A stretch of 64,000 bases of DNA from a bacterium (lineage in GTDB: Bacteria > UBA8248). Below are positions 30,041 to 37,036 of the stretch, piece after piece. The position numbers and the translations under genes are program-made. Location: contig CBDBZU010000004.1 of assembly GCA_965213625.1 (NCBI GenBank), positions 2,016,001-2,080,000 of the forward strand, in the 5' to 3' direction. Within the stretch, counting starts at the first letter, position 1, and each line of letters starts with the position of its first letter. The notes below the pieces were generated by a model. The model had not been told where the DNA came from. It worked only from the letters and a program-made list of their open reading frames with translations, and searched no databases.

Positions 30041-31210
30041 ATGCGTTACGAGTACATGATCGGCTGTCTCGCGGGGCTTCTGCTGATCTGCGCGTGGGCC
30101 GGCCCTGCCGCCGCCGACGGCAACTTTTCGCAGCGCTCCGGCTTCGCCGAGTATTTCGCGGCCAACCCTCCGGCCGACGCCGCCGGTCCGGCCGAGCGGG
30201 CCCTGACCCGCCGCCACGCGCCGCGCTTCCACCTGCCCGCCGGCCACGAAGGTCCCATCGACTTCTACCGCGACTACATCGCCCACGGTTACCTGATAAC
30301 GGGCGACGGCGTTCGCATCGACGGCCCCACCACCGGTGACCTGAACCGCAACCGCGACGACGTCCGCGCCGAGTTCACGCACGTGCCGGGCGGGGTCGAG
30401 CCCCGGCCCGTCGTCTACGGCGCGGTGGAGCGTACCGGTCTGTGGGCGCCTGAGGAAGCGGACCGGCCGGCCGGGGAATTCACCGTCCTCACATACCACC
30501 TGGTGTTCCGGGTGAGCGGCTTGCCGGCGGGGTTGTCCCCGGTCGCGTCCATCCCGCTTCGGCTGGTGGCGGACCTCGACGACTGGCACCAGCTCGACCA
30601 CTACACCGCCGCGTTCGTGGTCCTGGCCGCGGACGGGCGTCCAGTCGCCTTGACCCTGCAGCAGCACAACTATCTGCGCACCTACCTGGTCGGCGAGTCG
30701 GTGGAGCTCGGGCCCGACGGACGCTTCGACATCGACGTGGCCATCCGCTCGAACGAGCTTTACCCCCACGTTCCGGGACGGACGGTGCGCCGGGCGGTGC
30801 GGTTTTTGGACCATGACGCCAGGGCCTTCATGATGGGTTTCGGCAATCGCCCGATGATGTCGGCAGACGACATCACCGACCCGGACCGCACCGTCGACTA
30901 CGAGCTCGCCTTCCTCCCCGGCTCCGACGCCTTCTACTCGTTCCACGGCTTCCTCGGCGAGCGCCGCCTTTTGCCCGGCCGTGACGGCCCGCCCGGGGCC
31001 CGCTACAACACCCTGCCCGAGCTCAAGCCCCTGCCCGCGCAGATCTTAGGCGGTTACTGGCGCGAGGGGAACGAGGGCGACTGGGCGCGGTATCGGATCA
31101 GCCGGGAGAACGGCTCCGGCCCGGCCGGCTTCGCGCTCGCGCAGGCGGCGGTGTTCCATCGCAACCTCGGCTGCCTGCGCCGGGAGCGCAAAGGCTGCGC
31201 GCTAGAGTAG
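30041..31210 (+). CDS. Secreted hypothetical protein, very GC-rich (likely foreign)
   Basis: 389 aa, signal peptide ending PAAA-D, GAGG RBS, strong third-position GC bias. Confidence 0.8.
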   Translation: MRYEYMIGCLAGLLLICAWAGPAAADGNFSQRSGFAEYFAANPPADAAGPAERALTRRHAPRFHLPAGHEGPIDFYRDYIAHGYLITGDGVRIDGPTTGDLNRNRDDVRAEFTHVPGGVEPRPVVYGAVERTGLWAPEEADRPAGEFTVLTYHLVFRVSGLPAGLSPVASIPLRLVADLDDWHQLDHYTAAFVVLAADGRPVALTLQQHNYLRTYLVGESVELGPDGRFDIDVAIRSNELYPHVPGRTVRRAVRFLDHDARAFMMGFGNRPMMSADDITDPDRTVDYELAFLPGSDAFYSFHGFLGERRLLPGRDGPPGARYNTLPELKPLPAQILGGYWREGNEGDWARYRISRENGSGPAGFALAQAAVFHRNLGCLRRERKGCALE

Positions 31211-31620: not shown

Positions 31621-34600
31621 TCACCACCGCCTCGAACAGCGCAGCAGCACGCCGCTTTCAGGTTTTTCGTCGTACTCCGACTCCTTGAGCGAGGCCTCCA
31701 AACTCACGTCGAAGGCGGGATCGATCCGCCAGCGCGCGCCCGCGCGCCAGATCTCTCCGCTATCCGACAACGCCACGCCCGCGTAGGGCGTAAGCAGGCC
31801 GCGCCTGGCGTCGAAACCGTAGCCCACCTCGGCGTCGAGCCGCGTTTCGGGGTCGAATGCACCCGCTTGGATGCCGCCGAATCTCTGCGACCAGAGTTGC
31901 TCGGCGCTCCCCGAATCCGCACCCCAGCCGGAGCCCACGCGCACGGACAACCCACGCCCGTCGTCGCCCGGCGCGTAGAGCACCGAGCCGCTAACGCCCC
32001 ATTCCTCATAGTCGTTATCGGCGTGGGCGAGGAGGCCGCGCGCGCTCACCTCCATCGTCAGGCTTCCCGACGAATAGCGCAGTGAGCCGCTGACTTCGAG
32101 ACCGCTTCCCGTCTCGGCGTCGCCCCCGTCGTAGCGAAGGCCGACTTCCAGCGAGGGCGTGAGCACCCCGCCTCCCAGTTTGAACTCGCGCGAGCCTTCG
32201 AGGAGCACGCGGATTCGGCTCGTCTCCGCTTCAGCCGCGGCGAGGTCCGCCGCCGCTTCTGAAGTCGTGCGCGTGACGAGCAAGTCCGCGCGCAGGGCGA
32301 GTTCGTACCCGCCCGTACCGGTGGCGGGAAGGAGCACGCCGCGTACCCCGGCAGCCGCCATGCGCATCTCGATGTCGGTCTCGATGTGCCGCGCGCCCTC
32401 TGGCGAAAGCGTCAGATCGCCTTGCCCTTGTCCGAGCGCGCCCCAAAGCGAGAGCCGTTCGCTCACCCTGTAGCGGGCGTAGGGGTAGACGCCCATGAGC
32501 GTGCTCTCCACCTCGCCCGCACAGCCGGCCTCGCACGCCCCGCTCATCCGGAACGAGCCTTCGCCCGCACTTCGCGCAAGCGCCACGCCGAAGAGCCACT
32601 TGTCCCGCTCGAAGTCGATCCCCAGAGTCGCCGTGGTCACGTCGCCCTCGAGGCTGAGCGTGTCTTCCTTGCCGCTGAAGTTCGATCGCGCCCCACGGCC
32701 CCAGACCGACCAGCGTGGTCCTGACTCCATTTTCTCGGAGGACGCCATGTGGAACGAACTCGCGAGCATGAACTCGCTCATCTCGATTTCGCGCCGCGTC
32801 GCCTCAGCGTCCTCACCCGAAACGCCGCCTGGGCTGCCGAAAGCATTACCTGCGCCATCTCTACCGATTCCGTAATCGCCCAAGGCGAGGCGGGCGTTCG
32901 GGTCCGCCGGGAGGAGGGGGTCCCGGCCCAACGCCAGGCTTTGCCCGCCGAGCACAACGCCCGTGCGTGCGCCGCGCAGCCGCTCGGCAATCGCGTCGGT
33001 CACGTGCTCCGCCGCCTCGCGCCCGAATCGCGCGAGCCAAGCCTTTGGCATCGGGTCGGTGTTCGTGATCGTCCCGATCGCGGTTCCATCGGCGATTCTG
33101 AAGCGAATGCCCTCCTTTCCGCTCGGCGCCAAAGACAGTTCGAGGCGCATCGTCTCGCTGCCTTCGTCGAGCGAGTCGTCGAGCACCGGAATCGACACCG
33201 TGCGCGTCGTCACCCCGCGAGGGAAGACCACGAACCCCGTTTCGGCCACGTAGTCGCTTCCTGCCTGCGCCGTTCCGTCGACCGTGCGGTAGTACACCGC
33301 CTCTGAGCGCTCAGGCGCTCGGTTGAAGGTCACAACGAAGTCGAGCGTGGCCTTCGGCTCCTCCTGCGCCTCCGCATCGGCCACCGAGACCGCCGGAATC
33401 CCCTGCGCCTCGGAAATCTCCGGACCGCCGACCGCGCACCGCACCCCGACGTCCTCGCTGTGGTCGCAGTTGTGGACGCCTACCGCATTGTTGTTCGCGC
33501 GTGGACAGTCGATCAGGCTCGTCTCGTTGCCCACGCACAGTAAGTCGTCCAGGTGAATCGGTCCGTCGCCTTCGCCGAAATGCGCTCGGAGAAAGCGACC
33601 GCCGTTGCCTACCGAGCCCTCCGGGAAGCCGAGCGCGCGGCACGCGACGTCCGCTTCCTCATCGGTCCAATAATCGTCGCAAACCGTTCCCCACCGGCCG
33701 CCGTAAAATATCTCGAGGCGGCCCTCATGGGGCGTATTTCCGCCCACCAGTCGCAGCATTCCACCGTCGATGTGGGTCACCCGCAGGGTATAGGTTTGCG
33801 TCGTGGTGGTGTCCTCGGCCGTCACCTTGACCTTGACGACGTTCTCGCCCATGGCAAGGTCGATCTCGAAGGTGTTTGGGCTGCTCGTATCCGCGTCGGT
33901 AAGCGCCGTATTGTCCGACGCGAAAAACGCCACGCTTGCGTCCGGGTCGCTCGTCGTCGGTGTCACCGTGATGCGCGCGACGCCGCTCTCCACCGAGGCG
34001 GTGTAGCTTGTTGTCTCGGGCGCGAACGCCTCGTTGATCGAACCGGGGCTTATCTCGAGCGCGCTCAGGGTCGCGTCGGAGATATCTTCTTCTGTGATGA
34101 TGACGGATGCGCGGCAGGGGCAGGTCGGGGAAATCAGGGAACCGGGCAACAGTTCGAGTACAACGCCAAACCGCTCGTCACCCTCGTCTTCGGCGTCGGC
34201 AACAGTCTGCACGGTCACCGTCTTCGTCGCCGAGAAGGTGTTACCGTCCGCCGTATAGTCGCCCGGTTCGACGCGCAGTATTTCTGAAATCGCCGCATAG
34301 TCGTCGGGGCTTCCCGCTGTATCCGCCCGGGCGCTAACCGAATAAATTAGGGTTTCCCTCGGCTGCGGCACGTTTGCGCCGGTCTTGGCCTTTATAGCGA
34401 CGTCCAGGCTCTCGCCCTCTCTCACAATGTAGTCGTTCTGCGCCCAGCTGACGATGAGGAGCGGGTCCGCCGCCACCATCGCCACCGTCGCCGAGTCGTC
34501 GGGCGCGGCGGCCGCCTCGTAGCCCGTCCCCACCGCGACACTCGCCGTGATGTCCCCGCTCGTCGAACCGCTGTAAGTGCTTCTGAGCTTCACCGTTGCC

Positions 34601-36732
34601 GAGGTCTCGTTCGCCGGAATGGTGACGCTCGGCGAAGTGTCCGAGAGATACATTACCGCCTGCGTTATCGAGAGGTTGACCGTGAGCGGGGAGGCGGAAG
34701 ACGCAGAGCGCGTCACGCGGAACTCGGGGTGCGCGATTTTCGGCGCCGCCTTTGCGTGCACCGCCTCGATAGAGACCGTCGGCGTTGCGCCTTGTTCCGA
34801 CTGGCGCACGATCGTGAGCGTATAGGTCTGCGTCGTGGTGGTATCCTCGGCCGTCACCTTGATCTTCACGACGTTTTCGCCAGTCGAGAGATCGACCTGA
34901 AACCCCTCGGTGCTCCCGTCCGCGTCGGCGAGCGTCGATTCGTCCGCCGCCCGATACGCCACACTTGCAATCGGGTCGGTCGTCGTCGGCGTCACCGTGA
35001 TGCGCGCAACACCGCTCTCCACCATAGCGGTGTAGCTCGTGGTCTCAGACGCGAACGTCTCGTTGATGGAGCCGGGGCTGATTTCCAACGCGCTCAGAGT
35101 CGCGTCGGAGAGGGCGTCTTCTGTGATGGTGACGAAGGCGTAGCACCCGTCGATCGAATCCGAATGGGTCGTGGGACAGGTCGGGTCTATCGGGTTTCCG
35201 CCCACATGTTGGAGTAAAGCGAAAAACCGCTCGTCCTCCTCGTCTTCCGCGTCGGCAACAGTCTGCAAGCTAACCGTCTTCGTCGTCGAGAATGCGGCGC
35301 CCTCCGCCGAATAATCGCCCGGTTCGACGCGCAGTATTTGTCCAGTCACCGAATAGTCGCTGGGGCTTTTCGCCGTGTCCCCCTCGGTTGACACTGAATA
35401 ATCAACGGACTCTCTCGGTTGTGGCACGTTCGCGCCGGTCGTGACCTTGAACGCGACGTCCAGGCTCTCGCCCTCGCGCACCGTGTAGTCGTTCTGCGCC
35501 CAGCTGACGATGAGGAGCGGGTCCGCCGCCACCATCGCCACCGTCGCCGAGTCGTTCGGCGCGGCGGCCGCCTCGTAGCCCGTCCCCACCGCGACACTCG
35601 CCGTGATGTTCCCGCTCGTCGAACCGCTGTAGGCGCTTCTGAGCTTCACAGTCGCCGAGGTCTCGTTCGCCGGAATGGTGACGCTCGGCGAAGTGTCCGA
35701 GAGATACTCGTCCGCCTGCGTAATCGAGAGGTTGACCGTGAGCGGGGAGGAGGAGGACTCGGAGCGCGTCACGCGGAACTCGGGGTGCGCGATCCTGGGC
35801 GCCGCCTTGGCGTGCACCGCCTCGATAGAGACCGTCGGCGTTGCGCCTTGTTCCGACTGGCGCACGATCGTGAGCGTATAGGTCTGCGTCGTGGTGGTAT
35901 CCTCGGCCGTCACCTTGATCTTCACGACGTTTTCGCCAGTCGAGAGATCGACCTGAAACCCCTCGGTGCTTCCGTCCGCATCGGCGAGGGGACTGCCGTT
36001 CGAATCGAGCCAGGAGATGGTTGCGCTCGAGTCAGTCGTCGCCGGCGTCACCGTGATCCGCGTGACGCCGCTCTCCACCGTGGCGGTGTAGCTCATGGTC
36101 GTCGACTCGAACGTCTCGCTGAGCGAGCCTGTGCTTATCCCCAGTGTGTTCAGGGTCGCGTCGTTCGACATGGATGCGAGGTCCGTCAGTCGAAGCGAAA
36201 CGGTTTCGTCCACGGTCCAGGAGAGGGCTGAGCCGTCCCAGGCCCACCTGCTTGTTCCCGACCCGTGGTTAGCGATGTCAGCGCTGTCGAAGTCGTATGT
36301 CTTCTCGCCGACGTACAGGGTGAGCGAGCGCAGGTTGGCCGGAAGAATCGGCCGGACGGAGAATTCGAGCCTTCCGTTGCTGCGCACGAAGACCGCATGA
36401 ACGGCGTAGGTGGCGTCGCCTTCGGTGAAGTCGTCGTCCGTGAGGACGGCGCTTTCGGAGCACCTCTCACCCGCTTCGACATCGTTGCTGCAGCCCTGAA
36501 TGCCGCCGGGGAGTTCCTTGACGGTCAGGGTCCCGGACCAGACTTGTTTCTCCGCCGCGGCCATCGCTGCGAATGTCAGGAAGAAGAAAACGGTGAGCGC
36601 CGCGAGCAGCGCCGTATTGAAGCGGCCGCCGGGCCGGGTGATGCGCGTATTACATAGTGTTTGGTGAGTGGTGTTGTTCCGGGTTTGTTCGCCTGGTTCG
36701 TCGTCGGATGTTTCGCAAGATGTGGATCCCAT
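31621..36732 (-). CDS. Large autotransporter-type surface protein: cadherin-like beta-sandwich x3, Calx-beta-like domains, SRCR domain, C-terminal beta-barrel
   Basis: Signal-like TM segment; DATL..L.IS.G....F...TTSYTA repeats; SRCR LRLVGG...EGRLEI...WGTVCDD; MPKAWLARFGR linker; barrel ending in W. ATG 36732 follows GAAGGGGA (ORF open to 36822). Confidence 0.88.
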   Translation of the reverse strand: MGSTSCETSDDEPGEQTRNNTTHQTLCNTRITRPGGRFNTALLAALTVFFFLTFAAMAAAEKQVWSGTLTVKELPGGIQGCSNDVEAGERCSESAVLTDDDFTEGDATYAVHAVFVRSNGRLEFSVRPILPANLRSLTLYVGEKTYDFDSADIANHGSGTSRWAWDGSALSWTVDETVSLRLTDLASMSNDATLNTLGISTGSLSETFESTTMSYTATVESGVTRITVTPATTDSSATISWLDSNGSPLADADGSTEGFQVDLSTGENVVKIKVTAEDTTTTQTYTLTIVRQSEQGATPTVSIEAVHAKAAPRIAHPEFRVTRSESSSSPLTVNLSITQADEYLSDTSPSVTIPANETSATVKLRSAYSGSTSGNITASVAVGTGYEAAAAPNDSATVAMVAADPLLIVSWAQNDYTVREGESLDVAFKVTTGANVPQPRESVDYSVSTEGDTAKSPSDYSVTGQILRVEPGDYSAEGAAFSTTKTVSLQTVADAEDEEDERFFALLQHVGGNPIDPTCPTTHSDSIDGCYAFVTITEDALSDATLSALEISPGSINETFASETTSYTAMVESGVARITVTPTTTDPIASVAYRAADESTLADADGSTEGFQVDLSTGENVVKIKVTAEDTTTTQTYTLTIVRQSEQGATPTVSIEAVHAKAAPKIAHPEFRVTRSASSASPLTVNLSITQAVMYLSDTSPSVTIPANETSATVKLRSTYSGSTSGDITASVAVGTGYEAAAAPDDSATVAMVAADPLLIVSWAQNDYIVREGESLDVAIKAKTGANVPQPRETLIYSVSARADTAGSPDDYAAISEILRVEPGDYTADGNTFSATKTVTVQTVADAEDEGDERFGVVLELLPGSLISPTCPCRASVIITEEDISDATLSALEISPGSINEAFAPETTSYTASVESGVARITVTPTTSDPDASVAFFASDNTALTDADTSSPNTFEIDLAMGENVVKVKVTAEDTTTTQTYTLRVTHIDGGMLRLVGGNTPHEGRLEIFYGGRWGTVCDDYWTDEEADVACRALGFPEGSVGNGGRFLRAHFGEGDGPIHLDDLLCVGNETSLIDCPRANNNAVGVHNCDHSEDVGVRCAVGGPEISEAQGIPAVSVADAEAQEEPKATLDFVVTFNRAPERSEAVYYRTVDGTAQAGSDYVAETGFVVFPRGVTTRTVSIPVLDDSLDEGSETMRLELSLAPSGKEGIRFRIADGTAIGTITNTDPMPKAWLARFGREAAEHVTDAIAERLRGARTGVVLGGQSLALGRDPLLPADPNARLALGDYGIGRDGAGNAFGSPGGVSGEDAEATRREIEMSEFMLASSFHMASSEKMESGPRWSVWGRGARSNFSGKEDTLSLEGDVTTATLGIDFERDKWLFGVALARSAGEGSFRMSGACEAGCAGEVESTLMGVYPYARYRVSERLSLWGALGQGQGDLTLSPEGARHIETDIEMRMAAAGVRGVLLPATGTGGYELALRADLLVTRTTSEAAADLAAAEAETSRIRVLLEGSREFKLGGGVLTPSLEVGLRYDGGDAETGSGLEVSGSLRYSSGSLTMEVSARGLLAHADNDYEEWGVSGSVLYAPGDDGRGLSVRVGSGWGADSGSAEQLWSQRFGGIQAGAFDPETRLDAEVGYGFDARRGLLTPYAGVALSDSGEIWRAGARWRIDPAFDVSLEASLKESEYDEKPESGVLLRCSRRW
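33780..36165 (-). repeat. Intragenic tandem repeat, ~1.03-1.06-kb unit, about 2.3 copies
   Basis: 34754-34914 is identical to 35810-35970 (offset 1056); unit starts near 36165, 35109 and 34080. Confidence 0.9.
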
Positions 36733-37036
36733 GGTCTGTTCCCCTTCCTGTTGTAGCGGCGGCGGATGTGGAAGGTGGCGGCAGGAGTGAAATTTCGAGG
36801 TAGGCGGCAGGCTCGCCTTCAAGTCCAGGTGCGTCCGGCGAGGCCCGAATGGGCAAGAAAATGGTATCAGCGGAAGCGAAGAACGAATGTAAAGATTGTG
36901 TAAAGATCGTCAGGGTTTCGTAAATATCCTCGCGTTGGCGCGCCCTTGAGGAAGGGAAGCCGGCCAGTGAGGAGGTTGTTGAAAAAGCCCTCCTGGTTCG
37001 CAATTGGGTCCGATACCGGGCCTGTCCGTATGAAAT

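Follow-up and report, generated by a model that had tools for sequence, protein, structure and literature searches.

A group A scavenger receptor cysteine-rich domain in a predicted type V autotransporter adhesin of a bacterium

Two kinds of described proteins come closest to the gene reported here, the eukaryote-like adhesion proteins of sponge symbionts and the type V autotransporters, and the domain that sets it apart is a scavenger receptor cysteine-rich (SRCR) module of the type found in animal receptors. SRCR domains are central to microbe recognition in animals, sponges included, and the same module, with conserved ligand-site residues, on a predicted bacterial surface suggests that such recognition could be exploited from either side. 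The gene, here called SR1, lies on the minus strand of a 64,000-nucleotide (nt) stretch of a bacterial genome (GTDB lineage Bacteria; UBA8248; assembly GCA_965213625.1, contig CBDBZU010000004.1, positions 2,016,001 to 2,080,000), referred to below as the window. Coordinates are window positions unless a contig or locus is named, and amino acid (aa) numbers follow the minus-strand open reading frame (ORF) 31621-36822 as listed.

Group A and group B SRCR domains are defined by the number and positions of their cysteines, group A having six conserved ones and none at the two additional positions of group B. Classical type Va autotransporters have a beta-helix passenger and a 12-strand beta-domain of 250-280 aa, and the disulfide loops that their passengers are known to accept on the way out are small. 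Among animal SRCR domains, surface cation site 2 of SALSA/DMBT1 SRCR8 consists of D1019, D1020, and E1086, and site 3 of D1020, D1058, D1059, and N1081; hydroxyapatite, heparin, and a streptococcal protein are bound in a Ca2+-dependent manner, which either substitution, D1019A or D1020A, abolishes, and the same SRCR surface is used by MARCO, CD6, and CD163 (PMC7043408, in excerpt).

In sponge symbionts, cadherin and fibronectin III (fn3) genes are enriched and laterally transferred, and few of these bacteria encode classical secretion systems, according to the available text of a large study of metagenome-assembled genomes (MAGs) (PMC8163846). An excerpted sponge-holobiont review treats SRCR as a host receptor. 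SRCR is absent from the eukaryote-like domain classes in the main text of PMC11706023, and the word "scavenger" from the available text of PMC8163846; the supplementary tables of both might list PF00530, the Pfam SRCR family. Of 15 papers that cite PF00530, none deals with a bacterial gene, as judged by title and abstract, and full-text literature searches found no description of bacterial SRCR autotransporters; supplementary tables might list PF00530 in symbiont MAGs.

Identity and domain architecture of SR1

SR1 carries a true, full-length group A SRCR domain of the animal type. The Pfam scan gave a PF00530 match of 90.9 bits (cut-off 26.1; E 7e-26) that spans profile positions 1-99 of 100 and far exceeds what chance would produce, and the domain scored 97 bits with the same profile in a six-frame search of the genome. 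It spans aa 1023-1129 (33436-33756, minus strand) and contains exactly six cysteines; in the domain alignment, a histidine stands at the group B C1 column and no cysteine at the extra group B position. A first-pass annotation, made from the sequence alone, had reported a group A SRCR domain of animal type within an autotransporter at 33436-33759 and had proposed a PF00530 hidden Markov model search as a check, which gave the match above. The motif it quoted exists, but on the minus strand; a plus-strand reading of 33436-33759 was rejected, as its translation is meaningless.

A sequence search of the Protein Data Bank (PDB) returned 26 distinct SRCR sequences matching the SR1 domain at E <= 1e-10, the best single-domain matches being neurotrypsin (111.5 bits), LOXL2 (108.6), and SR-A (102.4). 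The AlphaFold2 model of the domain, built from a nine-sequence alignment, has a mean predicted local distance difference test score (pLDDT) of 84.5 and a predicted template modelling score (pTM) of 0.79. All 50 matches listed by Foldseek against the PDB are SRCR domains, whose fold is a beta-sheet wrapped around a single long alpha-helix, the best fold match among those listed being human SCARA1 (7dpx; template modelling (TM) score 0.84, root-mean-square deviation (rmsd) 1.8 A, 46% identity). Compared with solved structures, the domain shows 42-48% identity and TM scores of 0.79-0.84. The NCBIfam search of SR1 gave only a sub-threshold Calx-beta-type match to a sodium/calcium exchanger model (43 bits, cut-off 680). 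The group A, animal-type assignment is upheld by the profile match, the cysteine pattern, and the predicted fold together, and the autotransporter context by PF03797: scanned on their own, the last 459 aa match this family at 40.6 bits (cut-off 26; E 3.2e-10), and the search of the genome gave 33.7 bits.

Fusion of a bacterial gene with animal DNA, through an assembly chimera or host contamination, would fit the GC content of the SR1 ORF (65%, against 58.6% for the window) and the dominance of animal SRCRs among database matches. Three short-read runs (X1, X3, and X4) each contain one contig that covers 32400-34457 with no other letters and no gaps and bridges both SRCR junctions; the runs belong to one study of at most three samples and may include the source sample, so they serve as an assembly check and not as independent occurrences. 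These contigs end where the internal repeat of SR1 begins. In a congeneric sister species (G020), an SR1 orthologue with identical SRCR junctions occupies the syntenic locus of a megabase-scale assembly, its flanking genes being 90-94% identical in DNA. GC content at third codon positions (GC3) is even along SR1 (76.6% in the SRCR domain, 80.4% in the whole ORF), the frame is intact over 1,703 codons, and three SRCR genes lie on one 4.13 Mb contig (4,134,368 bp) of the 4.15 Mb genome. The bridging contigs and the G020 orthologue refute the chimera for practical purposes, leaving it a negligible probability. The first-pass annotation had argued from codon style against a host-contig chimera and had named mis-assembly at the domain boundaries as the danger; its argument stands.

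SR1 likely starts at the ATG 36732-36730, with the purine-rich GGAAGGGG about 8 nt upstream and the same methionine in the G020 orthologue. Its passenger was mapped by Pfam scans of fragments, and the whole-protein scan gave three PF12733 stretches. The features, all on the minus strand, are as follows:

31621-36732, minus: SR1, whole gene, 1,703 codons and stop; ORF of a predicted type V autotransporter adhesin with SRCR
36553-36732, minus: predicted signal peptide with long N-terminal extension, aa 31-90; basic stretch, hydrophobic core, and A-x-A before EKQVW, a layout kept in G020
36163-36552, minus: N-terminal module, aa 91-220; no Pfam family at E <= 0.01, best atlas score 0.79, a lead only
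35857-36138, minus: cadherin-like beta-sandwich 1, aa 229-322 (PF12733, 66.6 bits)
35206-35415, minus: weak Calx-beta-like module, aa 470-539 (PF03160, 21 bits, under the cut-off of 27)
34801-35058, minus: cadherin-like beta-sandwich 2, aa 589-674 (PF12733, 60.3 bits), within a duplicated block of about 1,056 nt
34084-34353, minus: weak Calx-beta-like module, aa 824-913 (PF03160, 24.4 bits, under the cut-off of 27)
33775-34017, minus: cadherin-like beta-sandwich 3, aa 936-1016 (PF12733, 52.6 bits)
33436-33756, minus: SRCR domain, group A, six cysteines, aa 1023-1129 (PF00530, E 7e-26)
33109-33351, minus: membrane-proximal Calx-beta domain, aa 1158-1238 (PF03160, 60.6 bits)
32707-33108, minus: linker, aa 1239-1372, opening with the PKAWLARF motif common to SR1 and its paralogues SR2 and SR3; largely disordered in the model, with a short helix before the barrel
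31624-32706, minus: predicted outer-membrane beta-domain, aa 1373-1733, last residue tryptophan (PF03797 40.6 bits, OMP_b-brl 29.2 bits)

No Pfam family was found in the passenger fragments aa 331-460, 691-815, and 1261-1400. Only about 110 residues separate the SRCR domain from the linker, and its position in the passenger is membrane-proximal. With cadherin-like, Calx-beta, and SRCR modules and no beta-helix in the passenger, SR1 is classed as autotransporter-like (type V) rather than as a classical type Va protein. As judged by eye only, SR2 and SR3 contain modules of about 120 aa that resemble aa 91-220.

Between 33882 and 36201, a block of about 1,056 nt (about 350 aa) made up of cadherin-like, unknown, and Calx-like modules has been duplicated in SR1, in tandem and in frame. 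The copies are 63-80% identical in DNA, the direct repeats have spacings of 1029 and 1056 nt, and G020 has the block only once; Tandem Repeats Finder, whose longest period is 500, reported nothing in SR1. The G020 orthologue has in turn a 225-aa in-frame insertion right after the SRCR domain; the insertion has no Pfam match, and none was found for the extra 283-aa piece of this orthologue either. The duplication and the insertion imply that modules are gained and lost at domain boundaries with the frame kept, as expected of a cassette-type adhesin.

About 180 nt upstream of the SR1 ATG (36733-36909, minus strand) are closely conserved with G020, and promoter and terminator scans gave counts no higher than in shuffled sequence. 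Converging on SR1 is a 389-aa ORF (30041-31210, plus strand), single-copy in the genome, with a signal-peptide-like start and no Pfam family; it sits in a stretch of about 1.9 kb with 68% GC, for which the syntenic locus of G020 has no counterpart.

Relatives, distribution, and origin of the SRCR domain

The database search with the SRCR domain gave 30,831 representative proteins at E <= 0.001, with top lists that were animal wherever a source was named. Such whole-database searches are swamped by multi-repeat animal proteins with summed scores, and relatives were therefore scored per domain. The SR1 domain reached 226 bits against its G020 orthologue and 127-149 bits against five domains of other phyla, as against 119 bits for the best eukaryote-set domain; that set was picked by summed multi-repeat score and holds some unnamed proteins, so that a closer single-domain animal protein may have been missed. 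Single animal domains reached up to about 110 bits, and the best named sponge domain, with 103 bits, ranked below crinoid and sea-urchin domains.

In a tree of 234 domains (120 bacterial, 114 eukaryote-set; 99 columns), the backbone was unresolved. With the set cut to 36 of the 120 bacterial domains and 37 of the 114 from the eukaryote set, and with four long-branch rows left out, the tree placed the SR1 SRCR in an all-bacterial set of six rows (Shimodaira-Hasegawa-like approximate likelihood ratio test (SH-aLRT) 96), in which its nearest rows are the G020 orthologue and rows from records titled Acidobacteriota, Pseudomonadota, Chloroflexota, and Binatota. On this reduced set, a single clade of all 36 bacterial rows was not rejected by the approximately unbiased (AU) test (p 0.67), and the log-likelihood of the constrained tree exceeded that of the quick free tree by 12.9. 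The best explanation of these relationships is that the SR1 SRCR would belong to a bacterial subgroup shared between phyla as an exchangeable cassette.

PF00530 was found in none of 14 control genomes and in six of the 51 species covered for the phylum, this genome included. All six belong to one genus (6 of 23 species), and none of the 28 genomes from the 14 other genera of the phylum had a match. A wider collection of 185,579 species, represented by one genome each, was scanned with two peptide patterns seeded from a five-sequence alignment (a nine-sequence SRCR alignment offered no conserved stretch fit for seeding) and yielded at least 73 bacterial SRCR loci. Their record titles include Acidobacteriota, Pseudomonadota, Chloroflexota, Binatota, Gemmatimonadota, Spirochaetota, Bdellovibrionota, Nitrospirota, Latescibacterota, and many Myxococcota, a patchy spread across distant phyla that is consistent with lateral transfer. 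The first-pass annotation had called the domain rare in bacteria; this is partly right, in view of the control genomes, the six species of the phylum, the loci in many phyla, and the share of SRCR carriers among the closest barrel relatives (23 of 120, see below). SRCR is more widespread in bacteria than that annotation supposed.

A recent direct capture of an SRCR domain from the sponge host, displayed so that the bacterium passes as self (molecular mimicry), would fit the 42-56% identity to animal SRCRs found in the database search, the scores of single animal domains, the expanded SRCR repertoires of sponges (PMC10855680, in excerpt), and the confinement to one genus within the phylum. It is unsupported in that the nearest relatives are bacterial (127-149 against 119 bits) and a single bacterial clade is not rejected; the subgroup support, the rank of the sponge domain below those of echinoderm origin, and the match of SRCR GC3 to the rest of SR1 also speak against it, and we regard such a capture as very improbable. 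One old transfer followed by spread among bacteria is compatible with the trees and scores, and its original direction is suggested only by the ubiquity of SRCR in animals as against its patchiness in bacteria.

The taxonomic spread also bears on whom the domain might bind. It could serve to bind other microbes or prey, in aggregation or capture between bacteria unrelated to a host: SRCRs are frequent among the Myxococcota-, Bradymonadia-, and Bdellovibrionales-titled records, some of them from groundwater or lakes by title, 50 of the 120 bacterial domains of the tree set come from Myxococcota-titled records, and animal SRCRs bind bacterial surfaces (PMC7043408, in excerpt). Neither tree, however, has Myxococcota rows in the subgroup of SR1, and a sequence about 96% identical to SR1 occurs in a sponge-metagenome run, which makes this reading rather unlikely.

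The beta-domain, called the barrel below, leads to a second set of relatives. Among 8,000 candidates scored, 1,378 proteins belong to the barrel family at E <= 0.001, and 23 of the best 120 carry SRCR, one to three each and at varying positions. Fifteen of the loci from the collection scan (L015-L087) combine an SRCR match with the same kind of barrel in one ORF; three of the fifteen have a strong SRCR match on megabase contigs titled Binatia, Poriferihabitaceae, and "bacterium". In four SRCR-barrel proteins, Pfam gave variable beta-sandwich modules, then SRCR, then Calx-beta, and then the barrel region. As these profile matches suggest, the SRCR domain is one cassette in a large modular family of predicted autotransporters.

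Other loci of the scan differ in completeness. L019, a contig of 2,321 nt in a Chloroflexota-titled bin, has SRCR and an outer-membrane barrel and may be mis-binned, and L020 and L037, on Dehalococcoidia-titled megabase contigs, have a related SRCR with no barrel in the same ORF. L077 and L082, from one Nitrospirales-titled record, consist of several ORFs of 60-144 aa, each with a partial SRCR match, which may be decayed or frameshifted SRCR arrays.

Within the genome, the SRCR domains of the paralogues SR2 and SR3 scored only about 48-51 bits against that of SR1 and had no clear bacterial neighbours in per-domain scoring. SR2 (contig C4 at about 3.42 Mb, L004:3509-8656, minus strand) combines fn3, cadherin, Calx-beta, and Ig-like modules with SRCR and stops at the conserved linker motif; 27 nt downstream follows a barrel ORF (L004:2159-3481, minus strand) that is 57% identical to the SR1 barrel. 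SR2 and this ORF are a split or frameshifted autotransporter, or a two-gene form. SR3 (contig C4 at about 0.22 Mb, L005:1909-8376, plus strand; 2,155 aa) has SRCR at its N-terminal tip (aa 82-194), and also Calx-beta, Big_12, and the same type of barrel.

Cation-site residues, export, and proposed role

Mapped by motif spacing and PDB-match alignments, and not by direct alignment to the SALSA chain, the site-2 and site-3 columns of the SR1 SRCR hold D27, D28, E101, D70, D71, and N96. All six matching residues are present, and cation sites 2 and 3 are accordingly both intact. Taken in the same order, the columns have the SR1 residue in 111, 116, 109, 116, 74, and 90 of the 120 bacterial domains; N (26 domains) and E (13) also occur in the fifth column, and D (26) in the sixth. 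The columns are conserved at least as well as in the 114 eukaryote-set domains, of which 94 have the first aspartate and 82 the site glutamate. The six cysteine columns hold cysteine in all 120 bacterial and in at least 113 of the 114 eukaryote-set domains.

The SR1 SRCR is under purifying selection. In comparison with G020 (Nei-Gojobori method), the ratio of nonsynonymous to synonymous substitution rates (dN/dS) is 0.21 for the SRCR domain (107 codons), 0.24 for the barrel, 0.27 for the N-terminal module, and 0.35 overall; the signal-peptide region, with an aa identity of 0.61, has a ratio of 2.0, and the aa identity of the linker is 0.95. Ligand capture by the SRCR domain, one of the two functions proposed in the first-pass annotation, finds indirect support in the intact cation-site residues and the purifying selection; the other, host mimicry, finds none in the form of a recent capture (see above). 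One could also see in the domain no more than a rigid spacer that gives the stalk structure and binds no ligand, as it is one module among many beta-sandwich spacers and membrane-proximal in SR1. Against this stand the retention, in SR1 and in most of the 120 bacterial domains, of surface cation-site residues that the fold does not require, the dN/dS of the domain, and the position of the first SRCR in the barrel relatives, which in 11 of the 23 SRCR carriers begins no further in than about residue 130, at the passenger's distal tip; a mere spacer is highly doubtful.

In the reading that we consider reasonably probable, SR1 codes for a surface adhesin that exports itself by a type V route, in a diderm bacterium probably associated with sponges, and the SRCR domain of this adhesin would bind acidic ligands via Ca2+. 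A Sec signal peptide would take the protein to the periplasm, BamA would insert the C-terminal beta-domain into the outer membrane, and the passenger, a string of beta-sandwiches with one SRCR near its membrane-proximal end, would be shown on the cell surface. There, the SRCR domain would use surface-bound Ca2+, as animal SRCRs do, to bind acidic ligands, the candidates being glycans that carry sulphate or phosphate, components of the matrix, or the surfaces of other cells. The cadherin-like and Calx-beta families are named for Ca2+-dependent proteins and would fit seawater-level Ca2+. Surface display, Ca2+-dependent binding, the ligand, and a role in host association are what we infer to be most likely from sequence and models.

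Export of this kind is supported by a BamA in the genome (PF01103, 181 bits, in an 801-aa frame) and by 12 autotransporter beta-domain matches. In the linker-plus-barrel model, built from 13 sequences, pLDDT is below 50 at model residues 1-81 and a long antiparallel beta-meander follows; 16-18 strand-like elements can be counted, and confidence is low at model residues 344-395. Reasonable superpositions in the fold search are nearly all on autotransporter translocators, and the fit is weak (target TM scores: BrkA 0.59, Hbp 0.53, EspP 0.52, NalP 0.46). Four of the six DsbA-family matches in the genome contain one in-frame TGA (contig C4 3636235-3636789, 2987909-2988472, 3609336-3609791, and 3655067-3655546) and may be selenocysteine-containing thiol-disulfide oxidoreductases.

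Several observations weigh against a Ca2+-binding, self-exporting adhesin of a sponge associate. On the side of binding, the buried structural cation site 1 of the SR1 SRCR is kept only in part, with T31 and E34 in place of two aspartates, and the dN/dS figures come from a single species pair. On the side of export, the signal peptide was judged by eye only, PF03797 is missing from the list of the whole-protein Pfam scan, the linker-plus-barrel model has an only moderate mean pLDDT of 61.5, and its top fold matches by E-value are TonB-dependent receptors with an rmsd above 15 A. The beta-domain, at about 365 aa, exceeds the classical 12-strand type Va size by about 100 aa, and the SRCR domain would form two disulfide loops of about 70 residues, as against the small loops that passengers are known to tolerate, in a genome with six DsbA-family matches; it may stay reduced until outside the cell, or the enlarged beta-domain may matter for export. 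The association with sponges, finally, rests on a single 619-nt piece of SR1 at about 96% identity in the sponge-metagenome run X11, which covers 19 of 30 bins and leaves the SRCR itself uncovered.

The passenger might instead be cleaved and released, as many type Va passengers are, and, in the role of a soluble decoy, compete for microbial ligands with the SRCR receptors of the host and damp host recognition. The ligand-site residues of SR1 are those of host-type receptors, as a decoy would need. The membrane-proximal position of the domain fits a displayed stalk as well as a released product, and we hold release as a decoy to be distinctly improbable.

Beyond the displayed adhesin that we favour, a broader proposal, somewhat unlikely as it stands, is that sponge-sharing bacteria of several phyla exchange a pool of self-exporting adhesins whose cassettes include a working copy of a host innate-immune recognition module. 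Under such an exchange, the displayed SRCR, its Ca2+ ligand site intact, could let the symbiont join the sponge SRCR recognition and aggregation network and be treated as self; alternatively, it could occupy the ligands by which host SRCR receptors mark bacteria for phagocytosis. The unusually large beta-domain may then be an adaptation for passing a disulfide-rich animal domain through the type V pathway.

Comparison with known systems

Like the group A SRCRs of animals (SCARA1/SR-A, SCARA5, MARCO, Mac-2 binding protein, neurotrypsin, and LOXL2), the SR1 domain has a full-length PF00530 match, six cysteines, and the site-2 and site-3 residues. Unlike them, SR1 is bacterial and has no introns. 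Its SRCR is flanked by cadherin-like and Calx-beta modules, whereas animal SRCRs are flanked by collagenous or coiled-coil stalks, and the predicted anchor is an outer-membrane barrel in place of a transmembrane helix. Compared with the CD163 domains, the SR1 SRCR has loop insertions of 4 and 3 residues.

With the classical type Va autotransporters, such as BrkA, Hbp, EspP, NalP, and EstA, SR1 shares a single-chain layout in which a putative N-terminal signal, the passenger, and a C-terminal beta-domain ending in an aromatic residue follow one another, as well as a BamA in the genome. In contrast to these proteins, the passenger of SR1 is a beads-on-string array of beta-sandwich modules together with a domain expected to hold three disulfides, and its beta-domain of about 365 aa is not confidently 12-stranded in the model and superposes on the classical ones with target TM scores of only 0.46-0.59. 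SR1 poses for autotransporter biology the question of how a domain expected to hold three disulfides passes the outer membrane.

The likeness to the eukaryote-like and adhesion proteins of sponge symbionts lies in animal-typical extracellular domains, with cadherin-like and Calx-beta modules in one protein (PMC8163846 and PMC11706023, in excerpt), and the spread of SRCR over distant phyla resembles the lateral transfer reported for symbiont cadherin and fn3 genes (PMC8163846, in excerpt). The difference from the classes described there is that the export route is explicit in SR1, where the type V barrel belongs to the same polypeptide; SR1 thereby points to a concrete export route for a symbiont. 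SRCR is added to a catalogue of symbiont eukaryote-like domains that, in the main texts searched, covers cadherin, fibronectin III, ankyrin, and similar domains. SR1 joins two known kinds, the symbiont eukaryote-like adhesins and the type V autotransporters, and does not form a new category.

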